Positions 1 to 58,752 are shown, counted from the stretch's first letter. The stretch: DNA of 64,000 bases from a virus (IMGVR_UViG_3300022748_000017:11988-75987); one strand, 5' to 3'. The notes: generated from the sequence alone by a model not told the origin. Made by a program: numbers and translations.

Positions 1-1140
1 TTCATTCAAAGTATCAATCTGCTTTGTCAATGCAGCGATATTTTGCTCAATGGTCGGGCCAGAAAGAGCTTCTTTGGTAGAGTCCCACCAATCGCTAAAA
101 GTCTTTTGCAGGAAACGCCATTTTTCTTGAAGCATCCCAACGCCACGGGCTTGCTGCTCAAGTTTGGTTGTCAAGGCAATAGAAATCTCTTTTGCGGCCT
201 CTTGAGTCTTTCCAAGTTTCTCAAGCGATTCAATGTTCTTGTACTGCTCAAGAGTCAAGAAATTCATCTTGTCATTGAGTGACTTTGCCTCAGAAGCTGA
301 GCCACTAAGAGCACCAGACAATGCTTTTGCTGCATCAGCACCAGAGATTCCTGCAACCCGAGCATATGTAAGCACAGCACGTTCAGCCGCACCAATGGAC
401 TCTTCCGTGAACTTCCCAGACTCCATTAAGCCCATCAAAGCATCTTTTGCAGTGCTGATTGATGTTCCACTGGCCTGAGCCATTTCTTTGGAAAGGCTGC
501 GCCACTTCTCAAGAGTTACACCAGAATAGTTGCCAGTCAGCGCAATGGTTTTGTTGAAGTTATCAATCTCTTCATCAGCCTTGTATGCCGCATAAGCAAG
601 CGCAGCAAAGCTACCAATGATGCCTCCAAGAGCCAACTTAAATGGAGAGAACAAAGAAAGCACAGCGCGGAAAGCATTGCCAACACCGCCCATCGAATCT
701 TTCAACTGACCACCTTGCTGAATGAAGGCAATCATCGCGTTCTGACCGCTGGCAATCTGTGTAAAGAAGTCGGTAAGCTGATATGTCACTTGCAACTTTT
801 GCTGCTCAGACATTGCACCACTCATCTTCTTCATGGATGCCGCTTTTGCGTCATAGGCTTTTGCTTCAGCAAGCAACATGTCTTTTGTGTTCTGAGCCGC
901 ATACATAAAGCGGCCCTTGCTGATTTCACGCTCAATCTGCTCGACTTTTGTTAGAGTCTTGCCATAGTCTTCAGTAGCATCTTTGAGCGCAGAAACCTCA
1001 CGCAAAGCAGCCTTGGTATCTTTCTCAACTTGATTGGAAAATTCTTTGAATTGTTTTTTGGCAGCGTCAATCCCCGTAACAAGCTCACCGCTGTCAACGC
1101 CAAGAACAATGCCAAGTCTGGCTAGGTATTGAGAAGCCAT
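1..1140 (-). CDS. Tape measure protein, copy A (5' part; runs off the left edge)
   Basis: Manual translation from the ATG at 1140: MASQYLARLGIVLGVDSGEL...QLTDFFTQIASGQNAMIAFIQQGGQLKDS, a lambda gpH-like TMP motif. The N-terminus matches TMP B (ARLGVLLGIDS). It lies downstream of the tail chaperone genes. Confidence 0.85.
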   Translation of the reverse strand, partial: MASQYLARLGIVLGVDSGELVTGIDAAKKQFKEFSNQVEKDTKAALREVSALKDATEDYGKTLTKVEQIEREISKGRFMYAAQNTKDMLLAEAKAYDAKAASMKKMSGAMSEQQKLQVTYQLTDFFTQIASGQNAMIAFIQQGGQLKDSMGGVGNAFRAVLSLFSPFKLALGGIIGSFAALAYAAYKADEEIDNFNKTIALTGNYSGVTLEKWRSLSKEMAQASGTSISTAKDALMGLMESGKFTEESIGAAERAVLTYARVAGISGADAAKALSGALSGSASEAKSLNDKMNFLTLEQYKNIESLEKLGKTQEAAKEISIALTTKLEQQARGVGMLQEKWRFLQKTFSDWWDSTKEALSGPTIEQNIAALTKQIDTLNE

Positions 1141-1619
1141 TATTTCTTCCTCCGGGCTTGTTTAGCCGCCACTGTGTTGATGTATTCAACCAAGTTTTCT
1201 TTGAAAATGCTGACCACATTATCCCTGTGTTTGGATATGGCTGGACGCAAAAAAGACTGAGCAGGAATCTTCTTTGTCCCGAATTCTTGGGCCAAAGAGA
1301 CTGCTGATTTTTTGACTGAAACGACAGCAATAGCCACATCGGTCTGATTGACCATCAGGGACTTTCTATCTGTTTCGTTAGGAATTCGTGCCGTGACTTT
1401 GACCGTATCCCGCATGTGGATCGGATTCTTCTCGTCACGGGCTTTTGTGCCGACAGGAACCGTGGTCAGAACCTCGTTGTAGACAGGCTCCATCGCATCC
1501 TTGGCGGCTTTAACCAAGGTTTGACGGGCAACTGTATCTGCTCTTCCAAGAGCCATCAGATCGGAAAGTTTGGACTCAAGCTCTTCCAAACCTTCTATCC
1601 GAAAAATCTCAGTTGCCAT
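1140..1619 (-). CDS. HK97 gp10-like tail component, copy A
   Basis: IEGLEEL N-terminus and AQEFGTKKIPAQSFLRPA C-terminal motif; paralogue of 42441-42995. Confidence 0.8.
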   Translation of the reverse strand: MATEIFRIEGLEELESKLSDLMALGRADTVARQTLVKAAKDAMEPVYNEVLTTVPVGTKARDEKNPIHMRDTVKVTARIPNETDRKSLMVNQTDVAIAVVSVKKSAVSLAQEFGTKKIPAQSFLRPAISKHRDNVVSIFKENLVEYINTVAAKQARRKK

Positions 1620-1620
1620 G

Positions 1621-1964
1621 TCACGCCTTTATGTAAGCCTCCGACCCCGGTTTCATGGCAATGAAGGACAACAAGTTGGTGTTGGCCTGTTCTCGCTTCT
1701 GTTCCTCGGAAAGAGGTGGAACAATGTAATCGTGTGTTGACGGCAATACGTCCTGCATCTTGAAGGGCGTAGCTGTTTTCTGTATTTTCGCGTTCAGGTT
1801 GCCTGTGGTCAAACAACTCAAGGCCAGAAGCACCGCCTTGGGTCCAAGCATACCATCAGACAACATGATTTCAATGGATCGCATGTCATCCACTGGAATC
1901 TCGTCAGGACACCCGCCGTGAGCATAGACATAAGCCCTAGCTTGGCGACGAATGTCCTGTATTA
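1621..1964 (-). CDS. Tail assembly chaperone, -1 frameshift extension (gpT-like), copy A
   Basis: The frame is open from the slippery site (KLIQDIRRQARAY...) into ORF 1621-1893; homologous to 41585-41920. Confidence 0.7.
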
Positions 1965-2417
1965 GTTTTTTCGCTCGTCCTTGTATCCGGGCTGGATGGC
2001 ATCGCCAATCTTGCCCACGATTTCAATCTGGACGGACAAAGGCCACTCGGCTTCAATCTCTTCGTATGTCAGATCATCCAAGGTCCCCTCTTGTGGGACC
2101 AGCAACCGGATGAATTCGACCACACGGGCTTCAAATTGAAGGCCAATACGAACCACATCTTTTGTGGAGCGACCATCAACGATGACATCATCATCAGTGA
2201 AGACCACGCCTGCTGTCTCGATATTCTTATCGAACCCAGCGACCAATTTTTCATAGCGTTCATCAAACTTTGCCTGATCGACTTCTTTGACACGCTCTTC
2301 AATCGCTTCCATTTCCTTGGTCAAAGGAATACGGACGCGAAAGGTTTGACCTGCAATCTCAAACGTCTTGATCCGCAGGTCTTGTGAATTCTTAAATGCT
2401 GCTCCGAGCCTTGTCAT
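1962..2417 (-). CDS. Tail assembly chaperone (gpG-like), copy A
   Basis: Lies between tail tube and TMP, ends at a slippery heptamer, homologous to 41953-42444. Confidence 0.75.
   Translation of the reverse strand: MTRLGAAFKNSQDLRIKTFEIAGQTFRVRIPLTKEMEAIEERVKEVDQAKFDERYEKLVAGFDKNIETAGVVFTDDDVIVDGRSTKDVVRIGLQFEARVVEFIRLLVPQEGTLDDLTYEEIEAEWPLSVQIEIVGKIGDAIQPGYKDERKN
1965..1971 (-). other. -1 ribosomal frameshift slippery site A AAA AAC
   Basis: XXXYYYZ heptamer immediately before the TAA stop; the -1 frame continues into the downstream ORF. Confidence 0.75.
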
Positions 2418-2418
2418 G

Positions 2419-2649
2419 TCATTTCCTGTTGTTGATAATCTTGTTGTAAATCTCTTGATTCAGTTCGACAGCATAGTCCACCGCCTCTGTTGGAGTCAGT
2501 TTATCTGCATGTTTGGCTGCAATTTCATGAGATAGCGCAACCGCCGTAATTCTTTGAGTTGAAAAGCTAAACCAATCTTTTCTTTCACTTGATTGAAGAA
2601 GCAAAAAATGTAAGAGGTCTAAACTTGATTTTTTGTCGTCTTTTGTCAT
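2419..2649 (-). CDS. Small conserved tail-region hypothetical protein, copy A
   Basis: Homologous to 42996-43223 (KDWF..LSHEIA.KHADK.TP.E). Confidence 0.7.
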   Translation of the reverse strand: MTKDDKKSSLDLLHFLLLQSSERKDWFSFSTQRITAVALSHEIAAKHADKLTPTEAVDYAVELNQEIYNKIINNRK

Positions 2650-2651
2650 AT

Positions 2652-3200
2652 TTATTCTATTAAAAATTGATTGTGTTTTTTTCTGTTTTCTTGTTTTGTG
2701 ATAATCATAAGATTTTCTGGAACATGAAGCCCACAAACCTTATTATTTATCAAAGGAATGATGTGGTCAACTTCAACATCAAATCCATTCTTTCTCATTC
2801 TTGACGCCTTTGCATAAATTTCTTTAATTGCCTCAAGATTCGCCCAAGATGGAGTGCATGTTTTTTTGTGCGATCTTCTTTTGGCGCAATAAAAGTACGA
2901 CAACTCGGCATGTTTTTCTTTATTCAAAGATTCCCAGCTTCTTGCTCTTGATTTGTAGACATCACTATTTTTAGAATAATGATTCTTCTTTTGCTCAAGA
3001 ACTTTTTGCAAATTGTTTGCTTTCCATTGTTTGGCGTTTTGTTTTATTTTTTCTGCATTTTTCTGATAATACAACTTGTCACAAGATTTGCATCTGCTAG
3101 ACAAACCATATTTGCCTTGTGGATTTGCAGAAAAACACAAAATTTCTTTTGTCTCTTTGCATGTACCACATTGTTTTTTCAATACAATTGTTTCGCTCAT
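2652..3200 (-). mobile_element. HNH homing endonuclease, A only
   Basis: CxxC pairs and VDHIIPL...VCGLHVPENL...ENRKKHN; AT-rich; absent at the equivalent position in B. Confidence 0.8.
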
Positions 3201-10055: not shown

Positions 10056-11735
10056 TTACCATTCAAATGAACGGAATCCAAATGAATCGCTCACAAATAC
10101 GTTATCCAAATGGCAGTGCATCGCCATAATCATGGCAATAATACCGTCAACTTTGGCAGATGGGTCTGCTTCGTTCTTTCTGACCTTCACGTTTCCGTTG
10201 ACATCAATGTAAACCTCGCAATTTCCTAGCTGCCAACCAACAAAAGGATTGCCATCATGCTTAATGGCTTTCTTCAGAATCAATTGCTCGGTTGTTTTAG
10301 ACGGGTTTGATAGAACCGCCATACCCTGACCGACCTTTTTAACAGGTAAACCGTCAGCATAAAGATTGGCGACAAGAGCCGCAGCGTTATAGGGATCGTA
10401 TCCAATTTCTTTGACTTCATATTTCTCACACTGTTGCTTGATGAACGATTCAATCTCATTCAAGTCAGTCACGTTACCCGGTGTGAGCCTCAAAATGCCA
10501 CTTTTGTGAGCCTGTTGGTAGATAGACTTGTAATGGTTCGGCACAAAATCCAATGACTCCTCTGGCAAGAAGAATTGGAACTGCGAATAGAAATCTTCTT
10601 CGCCATATCGGTGCAAAGTAACGACAGCGTTTAAATCTCGCGTGTGCGCCAAGTCAAAACCGATAAATGTTGACTCAGGTTTATCCTGTGGTTTTTCAGC
10701 AACAGACTCATCCCAGAAGCGCCTGTCAACCCATGCGGCATTGGCAGACACATAGATGTTCAATTGTTTGCACAGGAACTCATTCAGGCTGGCTGGCTTG
10801 GCAGATGCCTCTTCAGCCATGTGCTTGATGTGTTCTTTGGTAACTGACACACCTAGCATAGGATTGGCTTTGCCCCAAACTTCAGGATTGCTCCATTCGT
10901 CACCGGGGTCGATGCTGTACAGCAGTCCAAACCACCTGAAATTGTCAGCAGCAGCACCACGCAAAACCGACCGGAAATGGTTCAAATCCTCGTAGAACTT
11001 TGTCTCTTTGGTAAAGCTGGCAGTGGTCAAATACATCCGCAATGGATTCTTACGAGCGCCCATACCAGAGTGCAACACTTCAATACTGGACCGCTCCACA
11101 ATCTGGGCAGCTTCGTCAATCATCGCGACACTAGGGTTTTTACCATCACCGGTTTTTCTGTTCTCACGGGACAGGGCGCGGTAAGTAGAAGTCGAGTCGC
11201 CAGCCTTCTTTAGCTCACTGCGGTAAACAATAAACTTAGCCGCCAGTTCTGCCTTCATGCCTTCGACAATAGCTTTAGACGAATCAAAGCAAATAGACGC
11301 TTGGTCACGGTTGGTAGCCAGAGTAAACACCTCCGCGCCAGCATCGCCAAATTGCAACTCATAAAGCGCAATAATGGACGCTATAGTGGTTTTCCCTGAT
11401 TTGCGTGGAACAAACAAAATGACATCGGTTGTCCACCGAGTGTTCACATCGTTCTTAGCGCGAAAGCCATATATGCCAGCCAGAAACATAATCTGGAACG
11501 GCTCAAGCTCAATTGCTTTGCCAGCATCTGGACCTTTGACATGTCGGCAGAACCTGACAAACTTCAAAATGTGTTCGGCTTTGTCAGCCACAAATTCGTA
11601 GGGCGCATCCTTGCGTTCAGCCATGTCAAGGAATCGCTGGCAAGCCAGTTTGACATCCTCACACGCTGCTATATCCCCACGAACTACACTAATGGCGTAT
11701 TGAAACGCTGATTCAAGCTGTGGCGAATAACTCAT
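10056..11735 (-). CDS. terL: Terminase large subunit, copy A
   Basis: Walker A PRKSGKT, Walker B MIDE, GFDLA, YDPYNA, KVDG. Confidence 0.95.
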   Translation of the reverse strand: MSYSPQLESAFQYAISVVRGDIAACEDVKLACQRFLDMAERKDAPYEFVADKAEHILKFVRFCRHVKGPDAGKAIELEPFQIMFLAGIYGFRAKNDVNTRWTTDVILFVPRKSGKTTIASIIALYELQFGDAGAEVFTLATNRDQASICFDSSKAIVEGMKAELAAKFIVYRSELKKAGDSTSTYRALSRENRKTGDGKNPSVAMIDEAAQIVERSSIEVLHSGMGARKNPLRMYLTTASFTKETKFYEDLNHFRSVLRGAAADNFRWFGLLYSIDPGDEWSNPEVWGKANPMLGVSVTKEHIKHMAEEASAKPASLNEFLCKQLNIYVSANAAWVDRRFWDESVAEKPQDKPESTFIGFDLAHTRDLNAVVTLHRYGEEDFYSQFQFFLPEESLDFVPNHYKSIYQQAHKSGILRLTPGNVTDLNEIESFIKQQCEKYEVKEIGYDPYNAAALVANLYADGLPVKKVGQGMAVLSNPSKTTEQLILKKAIKHDGNPFVGWQLGNCEVYIDVNGNVKVRKNEADPSAKVDGIIAMIMAMHCHLDNVFVSDSFGFRSFEW

Positions 11736-12084
11736 CTACATCACTTACTTTGGCTTTTAACTTTGGACGACCACGGGCAACCAGCCCAAGCTCCGCAAGA
11801 ATCTTCACAGCCTTGTCAGCCATCTCAGTCCGAATCTTGTACCACGGTCCTGTGGCTTCACCAGAGTTGTAATGGAATGTATGCCCTTGCTCACGGATGT
11901 TGATTTCGGCAGTCAGCAAGCTGTCCACAGTAATCACCAATGTGCCAATCAGCAGTTCATCGGATGCCGTGAGTGCGCCAGTCGAGCTTTCAACTTCTGC
12001 GCGAATAGCAGTCTCGAACGCTTCCCTGCTCCATGAGTTGGGGTCGTTCAAGTAGCCAAGAATGTGACGAGGTTTTTTTGCCAT
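11713..12084 (-). CDS. terS: Terminase small subunit (P27-like), copy A
   Basis: Directly upstream of terL; ELGL..RGR C-terminal motif. Confidence 0.7.
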   Translation of the reverse strand: MAKKPRHILGYLNDPNSWSREAFETAIRAEVESSTGALTASDELLIGTLVITVDSLLTAEINIREQGHTFHYNSGEATGPWYKIRTEMADKAVKILAELGLVARGRPKLKAKVSDVDELFATA

Positions 12085-12105
12085 AGGTTTTCTGTCTTAT
12101 AAAGT

Positions 12106-12849
12106 TTAACTTAATAATTTCCATGCTGTTGCAGCACAAAGTGGGACTTGTCCATTACCAATGGCTCTAAGTCTGTCCACCCCAGCGGCCACCCCATCAA
12201 CCATTCGACCCACACCGGGTTCAGCTTCCCACCATTGTTTTGCTCCATATCCCGAACTGCTTGATTGATGGTGTACTGAGCCGGATGTCCCGACTTTCTT
12301 TTGGGAGTCCAATTCGGTTGTGTTCCACGTTGACCGCAACTCGCATCTGGCGTTGGGAACTTTTGCAACAATCCAGATTCTGTCCCTCTGATGGTTTGCT
12401 CCAACGTCCGCTGCTCCCAGCACTCCCCATTTCGCATCAAACCCCATTGCGGCCAAGTCTCCGAGAACGGTTCCAAGTCCCCTAGAAGTGAGCATTGGTG
12501 AGTTCTCCACAAAGACGAATCTGGGTCCCACTTCGTGAATGACCCGTGCCATTTCTCGCCACATTCCGGAACGTTCTCCATCAATTCCTGCGCCTTTTCC
12601 TGACGCTGAAATATCTTGGCATGGAAAGCCTCCCGATACGACATCAACAATTCCTCGCCACGGTTTTCCGTCAAAGGTTTGTACGTCATCCCAGATTGGG
12701 AAAGGCGGGAGAAGTCCGTCATTTTGTCGGGCGCACAATACGCTTGCGGGATAGGGTTCCCATTCAACAGCGCAGACTGTTCGCCATCCAAGGAGTTTTC
12801 CCCCAAGTATTCCTCCACCAGCACCTGCGAAAAGAGCCAACTCATTCAT
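12106..12849 (-). CDS. C5 cytosine DNA methyltransferase, alpha frame (motifs I-VIII and X), copy A
   Basis: FAGAGG, GGFPCQD, FVENS, HQRDRIW, RLRAIGNGQVP. Confidence 0.92.
   Translation of the reverse strand: MNELALFAGAGGGILGGKLLGWRTVCAVEWEPYPASVLCARQNDGLLPPFPIWDDVQTFDGKPWRGIVDVVSGGFPCQDISASGKGAGIDGERSGMWREMARVIHEVGPRFVFVENSPMLTSRGLGTVLGDLAAMGFDAKWGVLGAADVGANHQRDRIWIVAKVPNARCELRSTWNTTELDSQKKVGTSGSVHHQSSSSGYGAKQWWEAEPGVGRMVDGVAAGVDRLRAIGNGQVPLCAATAWKLLS
12111..12845 (-). CDS. Overlapping +1 frame ORF, putative MTase beta subunit (motif IX/TRD-like), copy A
   Basis: 244 codons open in the alternative frame with its own ATG; GKLNPVWVEWLMGWPLGWTD resembles motif IX; conserved in copy B. Confidence 0.7.
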   Translation of the reverse strand: MSWLFSQVLVEEYLGENSLDGEQSALLNGNPIPQAYCAPDKMTDFSRLSQSGMTYKPLTENRGEELLMSYREAFHAKIFQRQEKAQELMENVPECGEKWHGSFTKWDPDSSLWRTHQCSLLGDLEPFSETWPQWGLMRNGECWEQRTLEQTIRGTESGLLQKFPTPDASCGQRGTQPNWTPKRKSGHPAQYTINQAVRDMEQNNGGKLNPVWVEWLMGWPLGWTDLEPLVMDKSHFVLQQHGNY

Positions 12850-12913
12850 ATCCTTCCTTGTCTTGTTTTTGGCAAGCGTAACACAACCGAACCGGTTCGT
12901 ACACCCCCTGCTG

Positions 12914-12934
12914 AATTACGGTTATCCCGTAATT
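12914..12934. other. Inverted repeat in the putative packaging (cos) region, copy A
   Basis: AATTACGG-N5-CCGTAATT in non-coding DNA between the terS/MTase genes and the HNH; analogous IR at 52196-52216. Confidence 0.4.
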
Positions 12935-13106
12935 GACCCCGCGCCTGCTCCTAGCCCAAATTGTGTACTTTAAGTTTCTTTTCCGTGGGTTTTGCATGGA
13001 TGGAGTCACGAATCGAGCCTATTGGCGCTCGATTCCATCATTTTTAGGTGCGAATCGAATAGAAATGAGAAACAAAAGGGCTACAGACTGACAAGATGCG
13101 CCGTTT

Positions 13107-13529
13107 TTACCGGGCCAACATGAGAAACGCATAGTCTTGCGCGGTGTATTCGTTCGCTTTGTCGGTGTAATGGATGAATACCCCGCGTTTTTCTAGCGCT
13201 GACTTGATCCCATGGCATTCAGCATCCAGACTCTGAAACAAATTGCGGGTGAAGGCGTGAACGCCAATTGTTTGCCACGGGAATACATGGTCTACATGGT
13301 TAGCCGCTGTGACTTGTCCCCGCAATAAGCATGATTGACAAAGAGGCTGAATGGATAACTGCCGCTGTCTTATGCTTTCCCATGCGGCAGTTTTATATCT
13401 AGCATTGAACGCTTTACGGTCTATCGTGGGCGCTTTGCTTTGCGTGTGTGCTTCACAGTAGCGAGACCCCTTCACGCTAGGGGCTTTGCATTGGTATTCG
13501 TCACACTGTGCGCGGGGGATTGTGGGCAT
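13107..13529 (-). CDS. Terminase-associated HNH endonuclease (HK97 gp74-like), copy A
   Basis: QPLCQSC...HVDHVFPW...NLFQSL...CH; sits upstream of terS. Confidence 0.85.
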   Translation of the reverse strand: MPTIPRAQCDEYQCKAPSVKGSRYCEAHTQSKAPTIDRKAFNARYKTAAWESIRQRQLSIQPLCQSCLLRGQVTAANHVDHVFPWQTIGVHAFTRNLFQSLDAECHGIKSALEKRGVFIHYTDKANEYTAQDYAFLMLAR

Positions 13530-56785: not shown

Positions 56786-57073
56786 CTAGGTTTCGCAATT
56801 TATTTGGTCAAGCGTCCATTGCAGCAGGTCGTGCTGGTCAAATCCGTAGTGTTTTACAAACCCTTTGGTTCCAAGACCGTGGACACCTAAATTGCCTCGA
56901 TGATGCTCCGCGCACAACGGGATCAGCGTCTTGTAGTCGCCTTTTCCCCAGCCACCAGCTCTAAGGTGATGCAACTCCACAGGCGCAGGGTCGTGTGGCC
57001 CATAGAGTCGCCAACAAACAGCACAGCCAAGGCCAGCCACGGCGTTCTTGTGGGCTTTTTCGTCCTTAGTCAT
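56786..57073 (-). CDS. Ref-like/HNH Zn nuclease, copy B
   Basis: Homologue of 20292-20585. Confidence 0.7.
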   Translation of the reverse strand: MTKDEKAHKNAVAGLGCAVCWRLYGPHDPAPVELHHLRAGGWGKGDYKTLIPLCAEHHRGNLGVHGLGTKGFVKHYGFDQHDLLQWTLDQINCET

Positions 57074-57476
57074 CAAACGACCCAATGCTAGTTGGCGACC
57101 ATTTCACCTCACGTTCATCGCCAAACGCATGGCACAGTGTGATTAGGTCGGTCATTTCCTGTTTCGTCATCTTGCTGGTGGAGTCGCCGAGAACGACAAA
57201 CCCGCCATCAATCCCTTGGACAGCCCGTTGCTTTTTCAGGCCAGCGGTCAGCAAAACCTTGTAATCGTCTTTGGATAACCTTTGCCCATGCCATTCAACC
57301 TGATTAGCCAGGTCAGTTAGACAAGACCACATCAGCCTATTCTGTGCGCTTGAACGTGATTCGTCTTTGACCTCAATGGTCATCTTTTGCCCAGCTTGCA
57401 ACTTGGCCTTGACCATTTGCCAAATTTCACCAAAGACTTGATGCGCTTGCTGGGGTGCGTATAGTGTCGTTTTCAT
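57066..57476 (-). CDS. NinB-like protein, copy B
   Basis: RSSAQNRLMWSCLTDLA.QVEWHG...GIDGGFVVLG.STSKM. Confidence 0.8.
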   Translation of the reverse strand: MKTTLYAPQQAHQVFGEIWQMVKAKLQAGQKMTIEVKDESRSSAQNRLMWSCLTDLANQVEWHGQRLSKDDYKVLLTAGLKKQRAVQGIDGGFVVLGDSTSKMTKQEMTDLITLCHAFGDEREVKWSPTSIGSFDD

Positions 57477-57739
57477 TTGGCCACCTGAATTGCTCTAATT
57501 GCGGCTTCAACACCATCTATACGGCAGAGGGTACTACCAAGCCAATTCTGGAAAAAGTCCTCTTGTAGCTTGGTTAAACGCTTTTTAGGGCCATCCTTTA
57601 TTTCCATCAGGAAAGTTTGACCGTTGTACCCAACCAAAAGGTCAACAGGTAGGCCAATGATCCAGACATATGCGCCATGCACCCTTAGTGCGCTGACGAT
57701 TTGTTCTTGGTTTGCGTCTACTCTTGCTGCTCTACGCAT
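57473..57739 (-). CDS. PD-(D/E)XK nuclease/resolvase-like, copy B
   Basis: Homologue of 20886-21152. Confidence 0.75.
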   Translation of the reverse strand: MRRAARVDANQEQIVSALRVHGAYVWIIGLPVDLLVGYNGQTFLMEIKDGPKKRLTKLQEDFFQNWLGSTLCRIDGVEAAIRAIQVAK

Positions 57740-58553
57740 TTAGCAATCTCCAAGCTTCGGCTGCACAAAGTGGGACTTGTCCGTTTCCAATGGCTTTAAG
57801 TCGGTCCACCCTAGCGGCCACCCCATCAGCCACTCGACCCACGTTGGGTTCAGCTTCCCACCATTGCCTGCGCCCATTAACCTGGCCTCCTCGACTGTTG
57901 TGTTCTTGTTCAGCAAATCCCATGACCCACTGCCGCCACACATCCCCTTGGTTCTCGGCGTCGGCCAATGAACTTGTGTGCCTAGATTCGGTGACTTCCG
58001 GTTGCCTTGAGTCGCGCCGCTGTCTTTCCAATCCCTTGCGTTTGGACTTGCCCACAATCCACATCCTGTCTCGCTTGTGATTGGCTCCAACGTCTGCTGC
58101 TCCCATAACCGTCCATCGACAGTCATACCCCATTTGGGCAAGGTCTCCAACGACTCTGGTTCCTCCCCTAGTAGTGAGCATTGGGGAGTTTTCCACGAAT
58201 ACGTATTGGGGTCGTACTTCGCCAACCACCCTCGCCATGTGTCGCCACATTCCTGATCGTTCTCCGTCAAGTCCATCTCCTTTTCCTGCTGCTGAGATGT
58301 CTTGGCACGGAAACCCTCCAGATACCACGTCAACAATCCCTTGCCAAGGCTTTCCGTCAAAGGTTTGTACGTCATCCCAAATCGGGAAAGGCGGGAGAAG
58401 TCCGTCATTTTGTCGGGCGCACAGTACGCTTGCTGGATATGATTCCCATTCAACGGCGCAGACTGTTCTCCATCCAAGGAGTTTTCCCCCAAGAATTCCT
58501 CCACCTGCTCCGGCAAATAGAGCGAGTTCATTAAGGCTTTGCTGATTAGCCAT
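57732..58553 (-). CDS. C5 cytosine DNA methyltransferase, alpha frame, copy B
   Basis: FAGAGG, GGFPCQD, ENS, RDRMW, RLKAIGNGQVP. Confidence 0.92.
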   Translation of the reverse strand: MANQQSLNELALFAGAGGGILGGKLLGWRTVCAVEWESYPASVLCARQNDGLLPPFPIWDDVQTFDGKPWQGIVDVVSGGFPCQDISAAGKGDGLDGERSGMWRHMARVVGEVRPQYVFVENSPMLTTRGGTRVVGDLAQMGYDCRWTVMGAADVGANHKRDRMWIVGKSKRKGLERQRRDSRQPEVTESRHTSSLADAENQGDVWRQWVMGFAEQEHNSRGGQVNGRRQWWEAEPNVGRVADGVAARVDRLKAIGNGQVPLCAAEAWRLLNA

Positions 58554-58558
58554 GACAT
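57740..58558 (-). CDS. Overlapping +1 frame ORF, putative MTase beta subunit, copy B
   Basis: 272 codons open, MSWL start, WASPNA/WPTP repeats, GKLNPTWVEWLMGWPLGWTD. Confidence 0.7.
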   Translation of the reverse strand: MSWLISKALMNSLYLPEQVEEFLGENSLDGEQSAPLNGNHIQQAYCAPDKMTDFSRLSRFGMTYKPLTESLGKGLLTWYLEGFRAKTSQQQEKEMDLTENDQECGDTWRGWLAKYDPNTYSWKTPQCSLLGEEPESLETLPKWGMTVDGRLWEQQTLEPITSETGCGLWASPNARDWKDSGATQGNRKSPNLGTQVHWPTPRTKGMCGGSGSWDLLNKNTTVEEARLMGAGNGGKLNPTWVEWLMGWPLGWTDLKPLETDKSHFVQPKLGDC

Positions 58559-58752
58559 TAGATTGCCGCAGACTCAAAAGCGATTGCTTTGGCAATGAGT
58601 TGGTCATGCGTAAACCCATTGTATTTTTTTCCGATTGCTTTTTCAGCCATCTTTCGCAATTGCTTGGCGTTTTGCTTGAATTGCTGTTTGGCTTGATCCA
58701 CTGTGCAGCCAAAAATTGCTGCAATTTCTTGCGCTGTTTTCTGTGTTGTCAT
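58558..58752 (-). CDS. Small hypothetical protein, B only
   Basis: AGGA SD; its stop overlaps the beta-frame ATG. Confidence 0.55.
   Translation of the reverse strand: MTTQKTAQEIAAIFGCTVDQAKQQFKQNAKQLRKMAEKAIGKKYNGFTHDQLIAKAIAFESAAI

Follow-up and report, generated by a model that had tools for sequence, protein, structure and literature searches.

The cytosine C5-methyltransferases of the Bacillus phages SPR, phi3T and rho11s are multispecific single-chain enzymes with tandem recognition domains between motifs VIII and IX. The genes analyzed here are compared with these enzymes and, most closely, with M.EcoHK31I of E. coli HK31 (YGGCCR; Lee, Kam and Shaw 1995). According to the published descriptions, M.EcoHK31I is a C5-methyltransferase that needs two polypeptides, of which beta is encoded in another frame inside alpha and supplies motif IX (PMC2836561, PMC3404938), alpha carries motifs I-VIII and X together with a predicted recognition domain (PMC3404938), and internal Met codons of beta can act as starts (PMC2836561). 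M.AquI is built from two sequential subunits, with motifs I-VIII in alpha and the distal variable region plus motifs IX-X in beta (PMC3404938), and hidden out-of-frame HNH endonucleases (the ShiLan domain, Pacc40 gp60) were described in 2025 inside phage methylase genes (PMC11855218). We have analyzed two C5-methyltransferase genes, copies A and B, in a 64,000-nucleotide (nt) stretch of viral DNA (IMGVR_UViG_3300022748_000017:11988-75987; hereafter, the window), which originates from a 75,987-nt IMG/VR virus record containing both copies.

Each of the two genes has two co-extensive open reading frames (ORFs), named alpha (the frame of the catalytic domain) and beta (the +1 frame). Both ORFs are shown to be intact and under frame-specific selection, with the methyltransferase motifs split between the frames. 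The reading that we favor, with a probability of roughly 0.7, is that an orphan C5-methyltransferase would be assembled from two polypeptides, divided between them along its structural domains. The four ORFs are as follows (window positions; aa, amino acids):

12106..12849, minus strand: alpha ORF of copy A, 247 aa, with the motifs I-VIII of the catalytic domain, an unconserved linker and motif X
12111..12845, minus strand: beta ORF of copy A, 244 aa, +1 frame, with an N-terminal extension, one recognition unit and motif IX
57732..58553, minus strand: alpha ORF of copy B, 273 aa from the ATG at 58553, with a PF00145 match
57740..58558, minus strand: beta ORF of copy B, 272 aa, matching phrog_1008 (E 7e-22)

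An earlier note on this stretch of DNA, made from the sequence alone, had claimed that both frames are open over the whole gene in both copies, that their starts are paired within 4-5 nt and their stops within 5-8 nt, and that the frames stay open despite a length difference between the copies in the variable region. The ORF check confirms these claims, coordinates included. Neither frame of copy A contains a stop from start to stop, the alpha and beta starts (ATGAATGAGT, in the fuller stretch ATGAATGAG) being 4 nt apart and the stops 5 nt apart. The beta start of copy B is located 5 nt upstream of the alpha start (ATGTCATGG) and the stops are 8 nt apart; a longer version of this alpha ORF, from a TTG start at 58724, is likewise open. 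The third frame contains 12 stops in copy A and 15 in copy B. Identity between the two copies is 68% for alpha and 52% for beta, and their length difference is confined to the variable region, across which both frames are open.

The catalytic motifs are located in the alpha chain, which includes all of the C5-methyltransferase motifs I (FxGxGG), IV (PCQ), VI (ENV/ENS) and VIII (QxRxR). In copies A and B, motif VIII reads HQRDR/HKRDR, with FAGAGG as motif I, GFPCQD as motif IV, ENS as motif VI and IGNGQVP as motif X. The positions obtained by the motif scan are:

12814..12831, minus strand: motif I (FAGAGG) of copy A alpha
12613..12630, minus strand: motif IV (GFPCQD, with the catalytic Cys) of copy A alpha
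12499..12507, minus strand: motif VI (ENS) of copy A alpha
12379..12393, minus strand: motif VIII (HQRDR) of copy A alpha
12142..12162, minus strand: motif X (IGNGQVP) of copy A alpha
57771..57791, minus strand: motif X (IGNGQVP) of copy B alpha

In the Pfam search, alpha of copy A matched PF00145 with E 3.4e-29 (residues 4-184 against profile positions 4-181 of 324) and alpha of copy B with E 2.7e-31, the alpha matches ending at profile positions 181-192 of 324; alpha of copy A also matched phrog_363 (E 3.6e-66). The alpha consensus passes through motifs I, IV, VI and VIII, then has no conserved column, and resumes as WWxxEPxVGRVxxGVxxRVDRLKAIGNGQVP, which contains motif X. Since the Pfam match ends early and the variable region is devoid of conserved columns, neither a recognition domain nor motif IX is found in the alpha chain. 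Motif X is called by its pattern only, the Pfam alignment ending ahead of it, and its residues G231, N232 and V235 do not vary among 55 alpha sequences. In copy A, it begins (in the alpha frame) 4 codons past the end of motif IX (in the beta frame). The motif scan, the Pfam matches and the selection analysis described below thus bear out the description of a main frame with motifs I, IV, VI, VIII and X, no motif IX and an unconserved variable region.

The counterparts of these absent elements are found in beta, at the following positions:

12228..12356, minus strand: variable region of copy A, with the recognition unit PTPDASCGQRGTQPNWTPKRKSGHPAQYTINQAVRD... (module types D-H) in beta and an unconserved open linker in alpha
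12174..12227, minus strand: motif IX of copy A beta (KLNPVWVEWLMGWPLGWT), overlapping WWEAEPGVGRMVDGVAAGVD of alpha in the other frame
57857..58051, minus strand: variable region of copy B, with two modules in beta (ASPNARDWKDS... and WPTPRTKGMCGG..., types E-F), unlike copy A
57803..57856, minus strand: motif IX of copy B beta (KLNPTWVEWLMGWPLGWT), from the motif scan

The beta consensus starts with MSW, includes GMTxKPLTE and TWPxWGxMxxG followed by a PTP anchor with hypervariable sequence, and ends with G-x-LNPxWxEWLMGWPxGWT; KLNPxWVEWLMGWPLGWT is present in beta of both copies. The resemblance of this +1-frame element to motif IX, pointed out in the earlier note, is supported in two ways: hhalign places residues 205-227 of beta on VRRLTPLERERLQGFPDGWS, the canonical motif IX of the single-chain methyltransferase L210, and the PF00145 match of a single-frame relative (P0324) extends to profile position 294, ending exactly at LNPNWVEKLMGWPEDWT. 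The hypervariable part comprises 1-5 modules per protein, with ~57 types in shuffled combinations (as defined by crude clustering). Thus, of the PTP/SP repeats resembling target-recognition domains that had been proposed for this frame, the modules are present, and the repeats are not, as copy A has a single unit (PTPDAS...WTPKRK...) and copy B two modules of different types. The further claim that recognition modules evolve in the hidden frame agrees with the shuffled combinations and with the strong constraint on beta in this region (see below). Beta of copy A matches phrog_1008, 'DNA methyltransferase' (E 8e-26), and has 6,493 homologues; a search of the Protein Atlas with a homologue returned only viral clusters of 'hypothetical protein'.

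Frame-specific constraint was assessed using relatives gathered from IMG/VR as well as annotated phages and plasmids, 166 distinct loci altogether. Synonymous codons were shuffled within each alpha gene, preserving its protein and codon composition. Beta-frame stops are absent in 152 of the 166 loci, compared with 5.0 expected from the shuffles (mean probability of zero stops 0.003) and ~17 in the third frame. For copies A and B, the shuffles yielded an expectation of 4.5 and 5.7 beta-frame stops, respectively, and 0 of 200 shuffles without a stop in each case. Homologues, therefore, almost never have beta stops upstream of the LNPxWVEWLMG motif, and a second ORF in an alternative frame of alpha is found to be conserved among the relatives. 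Internal beta stops were detected in nine loci. As seven of these nine, among them a Sulfitobacter phage and archaeal, Nostoc and Bacteroides plasmids, have stops only within ~45 codons after motif I, the universal core of beta spans from just before motif IV to the end; a stop downstream of codon ~45 was observed in a single locus (L069) out of 166. Reciprocally, the variable region of alpha contains 0 stops in all 130 of 130 loci (3.2 expected; 4.2 in the third frame), and alpha remains open through this region even where it is 120-171 codons long.

The ratio of nonsynonymous to synonymous substitution rates (dN/dS) was estimated by Nei-Gojobori counts for 17 disjoint ungapped pairs, region by region:

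N-terminal region (over motifs I-VIII): dN/dS 0.18 for alpha, 0.74 for beta, 1.85 for the third frame
Variable region: dN/dS 1.84 for alpha, 0.15 for beta, 1.38 for the third frame
C-terminal region: dN/dS 0.26 for alpha, 0.41 for beta, 1.59 for the third frame

A simulation in which, at matched divergence, only alpha was under selection predicted a beta dN/dS of 2.0 (observed, 0.75) and 2.8 new stops in the beta frame for each descendant, with none in only 8% of them (observed, no new stops). Based on the regional dN/dS values together with this simulation, the gene can be divided into three parts: the N-terminal part, where alpha dominates and beta is under a weaker but real constraint; the variable region, which is beta-coding, with alpha merely kept open; and the C-terminus, which is truly dual-coding.

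Additional evidence comes from relatives in which the same parts are arranged differently. Four proteins (P0314, P0324, P0330 and P0331) have motifs I-VIII, PTP modules and motif IX in a single frame, and three of the four also have motif X there; such single-frame relatives link beta with the enzyme. Residues 12-176 of P0324, its motif I-VIII part, can be aligned to residues 10-171 of M.HhaI. A low-confidence AlphaFold2 model of P0324, obtained with a composite alignment, has a mean predicted local distance difference test (pLDDT) score of 59, with the recognition module below 50. In Arthrobacter phage Colucci (L085, MF185718.1), gp82, annotated as 'DNA methylase', includes motifs I-VIII and ends after motif VIII, and gp83 ('hypothetical protein'), in the +1 frame and overlapping gp82 by 35 nt, contains several PTP-type modules followed by RLNPAFVEWMMG...LKALGNGVCPQ, i.e., motifs IX and X in canonical order. 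A Pfam search of gp83 gave no match. Together, gp82 and gp83 look like one split methyltransferase, or one that is joined by a frameshift.

The start regions of the two genes and their relatives were compared with respect to possible translation of both chains, and the two relevant signals in the window are:

12851..12859, minus strand: Shine-Dalgarno (SD)-like AAGGAAGGA, common to both starts of copy A, its end preceding the alpha ATG by 1 nt and the beta ATG by 5 nt
58556..58560, minus strand: TAATG junction of copy B, where a 64-aa ORF located upstream ends in a stop that overlaps the beta ATG, with the alpha ATG 5 nt further down

Relative to the nearest alpha start (ATG in 95 loci, TTG in 50, GTG in 19), the beta ATG is located at +4 in 126 loci and at -5 in 30, i.e., in 156 of 164. 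The core of the SD-like element ends 5-9 nt ahead of the beta ATG across loci, a spacing that fits beta. In approximately half of the +4 loci, the TGA of NTGAATG doubles as the stop of an upstream ORF of at least 50 aa, so that both starts sit at a classical coupling site.

Overall, the mechanism that we propose would begin with the translation of both chains from one stretch of mRNA, in two frames and from neighboring starts behind one ribosome-binding site. Alpha would provide the whole large catalytic domain (motifs I-VIII, a linker that needs only to stay open and the motif X segment) and beta the small recognition domain (motif IX and at least one PTP-type target-recognition module), a division which we take to correspond to the whole large and the whole small domain, respectively, of the textbook structure of M.HhaI. 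The N-terminal stretch of beta necessarily overlaps the catalytic motifs and may be a docking arm. Assembly of the chains would then proceed as in M.EcoHK31I, and the resulting enzyme would protect phage DNA from host restriction by methylating it at sites specified by the beta modules (each PTP module possibly setting one target sequence). We infer from sequence data that both starts are used, that the chains bind each other, that the complex is active and that its role is anti-restriction. The heterodimer proposed in the earlier note is supported, all of its predictions at the level of sequence being borne out.

Several observations weigh against this reading. The commonest start arrangement places the SD-like element only 1-5 nt from the alpha start, which leaves efficient initiation of alpha unexplained. 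The analogy with M.EcoHK31I is incomplete, as its recognition domain was reported in alpha, and in the window copies the modules are in beta and the alpha linker is unconserved. Natural single-frame relatives indicate that the enzyme can work, or at least exist, as one chain. Regarding beta itself, no accepted Pfam or NCBIfam family was matched; a single-sequence search of the PDB returned no match and a profile search only two chance-level matches; the hhalign match to motif IX is short (23 columns, with a probability of 5%); and beta alone is predicted by AlphaFold2 (58-row alignment) to be largely disordered, in a low-confidence model with a mean pLDDT of 52.

The alternative that survives best is a variant of the same model, in which two polypeptides are made and the functional beta starts internally, ~45-70 codons in, giving a small subunit of the size of that of M.EcoHK31I; the upstream part would be dispensable or a translated leader. 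Such an arrangement is suggested by distant members (archaeal, Nostoc and Bacteroides plasmids and Sulfitobacter phage phiGT1), whose stops are confined to the ~45 codons that follow motif I and are succeeded by an ATG, by the disorder predicted by AlphaFold2 for beta residues 1-56, and by the internal Met starts of M.EcoHK31I beta mentioned above. We nevertheless consider it unlikely given the position of the beta ATG at +4/-5, with the SD-like element spaced accordingly, in 156 of the 164 loci of the clade of the window copies, the absence of accumulated stops in the first 45 codons, where the simulation expects some, and the dN/dS of the whole N-terminal part of beta, which is well below the null value (0.75 vs. 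2.0).

The second alternative, a single polypeptide produced by recoding, would combine the alpha frame (motifs I-VIII), a +1 shift into beta (modules and motif IX) and a -1 shift back for motif X. It has the merit of restoring the canonical order of motifs I-VIII, modules, IX and X, with motif X following motif IX so closely, and relatives with the parts in one frame do exist; in one sub-family, a run of 10-15 G located ~18 nt after motif VIII makes slippage plausible in some lineages. This reading requires, however, two shifts in opposite directions, and homopolymer runs of at least 6 nt and shared slippery heptamers are absent from both junctions in the two window copies, so that homopolymer slippage in these copies is rejected. 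Neither does recoding account for the openness of, and constraint on, the ~160 beta codons that precede the shift, for the conservation of a beta ATG at a suitable distance from an SD-like element, or for an alpha frame that is open through the variable region. The programmed double frameshift, which the earlier note had kept as an alternative explanation, is therefore poorly supported for copies A and B, and we regard it as very improbable.

Finally, it is hardly credible that beta is a non-functional by-product of the sequence and codon usage of alpha, with alpha alone or with an unlinked partner as the enzyme, since, even though part of the N-terminal conservation of beta is forced by alpha motifs (AFHAKTS is the +1 reading of GFPCQDIS), no curated family exists for beta and long alternative ORFs are common in GC-rich DNA, the GC content of the window is only 48%, stop-free shuffles amount to 0.3% of trials vs. 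152 stop-free loci out of 166, alpha is devoid of a recognition domain and motif IX (covering only positions 4-181 of 324 in Pfam), and in the variable region beta is under purifying selection (0.15) and alpha evolves like an off-frame (1.84), a chance ORF or codon-usage by-product thus being rejected by the shuffles, the openness of alpha in the variable region, the alpha-only simulation and the variable-region dN/dS.

Returning to the favored two-polypeptide enzyme, the family reaches elements of Proteobacteria, Cyanobacteria, Spirochaetes and Bacteroidota as well as an archaeal plasmid. Both frames are open in phages of Acinetobacter, Salmonella, Klebsiella, Ralstonia, Vibrio, Microcystis and Pseudomonas and in a Leptospira plasmid, and a shorter beta is open in the Sulfitobacter phage and in the Nostoc, Bacteroides and archaeal plasmids. 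The claim that annotators discard the hidden frame proved half true: beta is often called instead of alpha, gene callers having produced at least 13,837 clusters of beta-frame proteins (at 50% identity), and it is then usually labeled 'hypothetical protein'. For example, only beta is annotated in Ralstonia phage Gerry and Pseudomonas phage phPA-G (as 'hypothetical protein'), and only alpha in Salmonella S9-5 and Acinetobacter ABMM1. What databases contain is either alpha, presented as an apparently complete 'DNA cytosine methyltransferase' although it is without a recognition domain, or beta, as a 'hypothetical protein', and almost never both; methylome-to-gene assignments and predictions of phage anti-restriction would therefore be systematically wrong for this family.

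It is, in our view, an evenly balanced proposition that a very large family of phage and plasmid cytosine methyltransferases is obligately encoded in two co-extensive frames, with specificity residing in the hidden frame, module shuffling generating multispecific anti-restriction enzymes and the N-terminal part of beta acting as a functional docking arm. If true, no dual-coding gene on a single strand known from prokaryotic viruses would be longer or more widespread. Full-length dual coding on the same strand is rare, here extending over ~740-820 nt and kept across hosts from ~35% to over 60% GC, and in these genes the constraint on each frame can be measured region by region. Should each PTP module set a target, the family would represent a natural kit of exchangeable specificity modules on a separate subunit, and the NTGAATG arrangement behind one SD-like element may be a way of fixing the ratio of the two subunits.

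The two copies are found in different genomic contexts (segments 10056-13529 and 57066-58752), and the 75,987-nt record seems to hold two related phage units. Copy A is located between a small-terminase-like gene and an HNH endonuclease gene, adjoining the large terminase gene. Copy B belongs to a NinB/endonuclease block, with translational coupling on either side, the downstream junction being:

57737..57742, minus strand: TAAATG junction of copy B, where the ATG of the next gene directly adjoins the beta stop, with the alpha stop inside that gene

This next gene (57473-57739) has a weak match to the PHROG endonuclease family phrog_93. The designation of both copies as orphan methyltransferases, also made in the earlier note, is reasonable because no restriction enzyme gene was recognized among their scanned neighbors.

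Some relatives display further peculiarities of the two frames. Four loci (L091, L106, L116 and L124) have an HNH endonuclease gene in the third frame directly after motif IX, alpha being closed there; beta reads through the insert without stops into motif X, which therefore switches chain. Proteins P0129, P0134, P0135, P0142, P0145 and P0147 also belong to these HNH-insert relatives, and there are at least two types of insert. In the P0324 model, residues ~310-400, representing the reading of the HNH insert in the methyltransferase frame, are predicted as a confident helical domain with pLDDT 82-91 (from ~5 aligned sequences), and the catalytic and recognition parts scored poorly; the HNH insert may itself be dual-coding. 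In the G-run sub-family (L269, L292, L296, L297, L298, L301, L309, L312, L323 and L339), the 10-15 G are located ~18 nt after motif VIII, at the point of the register change between the frames, and nine of the ten assembled copies have motif IX in frame with motifs I-VIII and motif X in the +2 frame, L292 having the standard two-frame register. This G-run could be a hypermutable switch, a site of transcriptional slippage or a homopolymer sequencing error. In L104 (IMGVR_UViG_3300042371_000296), alpha and beta exchange frames through a 1-nt indel within a short G-run downstream of motif IV, which is probably an assembly error or a dead copy.

Inteins (Hint and LAGLIDADG matches in Pfam) are inserted exactly at the catalytic Cys of PCQ in some alpha relatives (P0325, P0391 and others). 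L210 (IMGVR_UViG_3300036792_000096, ~580-3200) was rejected as an intein-bearing member of the family, being a different, GC-rich enzyme, an intein-containing C5-methyltransferase of the canonical single-chain type. The +1 frame of L210 is open over ~700 codons, reading ...ECSLSDILEAHPPSRFSLSPKACRGILRRAERRGRRLPERL... after motif VIII, and may represent either an ORF that arose by chance through high GC content or another family of dual-coding methyltransferases.

Our literature searches returned no description of this two-frame family of phage methyltransferases, M.EcoHK31I being the only precedent found. Compared with the multispecific enzymes of SPR, phi3T and rho11s, beta has a similar organization of several tandem modules whose content varies between related phages; those enzymes are, however, single chains encoded in one frame, unlike the window copies. 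The layout of M.AquI is matched by Colucci gp82/gp83, which have the same PTP modules and an LNPAFVEWMMG motif, and its placement of motif X in the beta chain recurs in the HNH-insert relatives; the M.AquI genes are consecutive, whereas the window copies overlap completely and motif X stays in alpha. Like ShiLan and Pacc40 gp60, L091, L106, L116 and L124 carry an out-of-frame HNH gene that is read through by the methyltransferase frame, and in these loci the insert shifts motif X from the alpha to the beta chain; inserts of this kind are absent from the window copies. The closest likeness, as judged from the published description, is to M.EcoHK31I, which also has motifs I-VIII and X in alpha and motif IX in a beta encoded in an alternative frame. 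M.EcoHK31I belongs to a restriction-modification system and its beta lies 'entirely within' alpha, whereas the window copies are orphan phage genes with co-extensive ORFs (starts 4-5 nt and stops 5-8 nt apart). The complete overlap of the two frames, the location of the recognition modules in beta and the occurrence as orphan phage genes are the three points that set the window genes apart from M.EcoHK31I.

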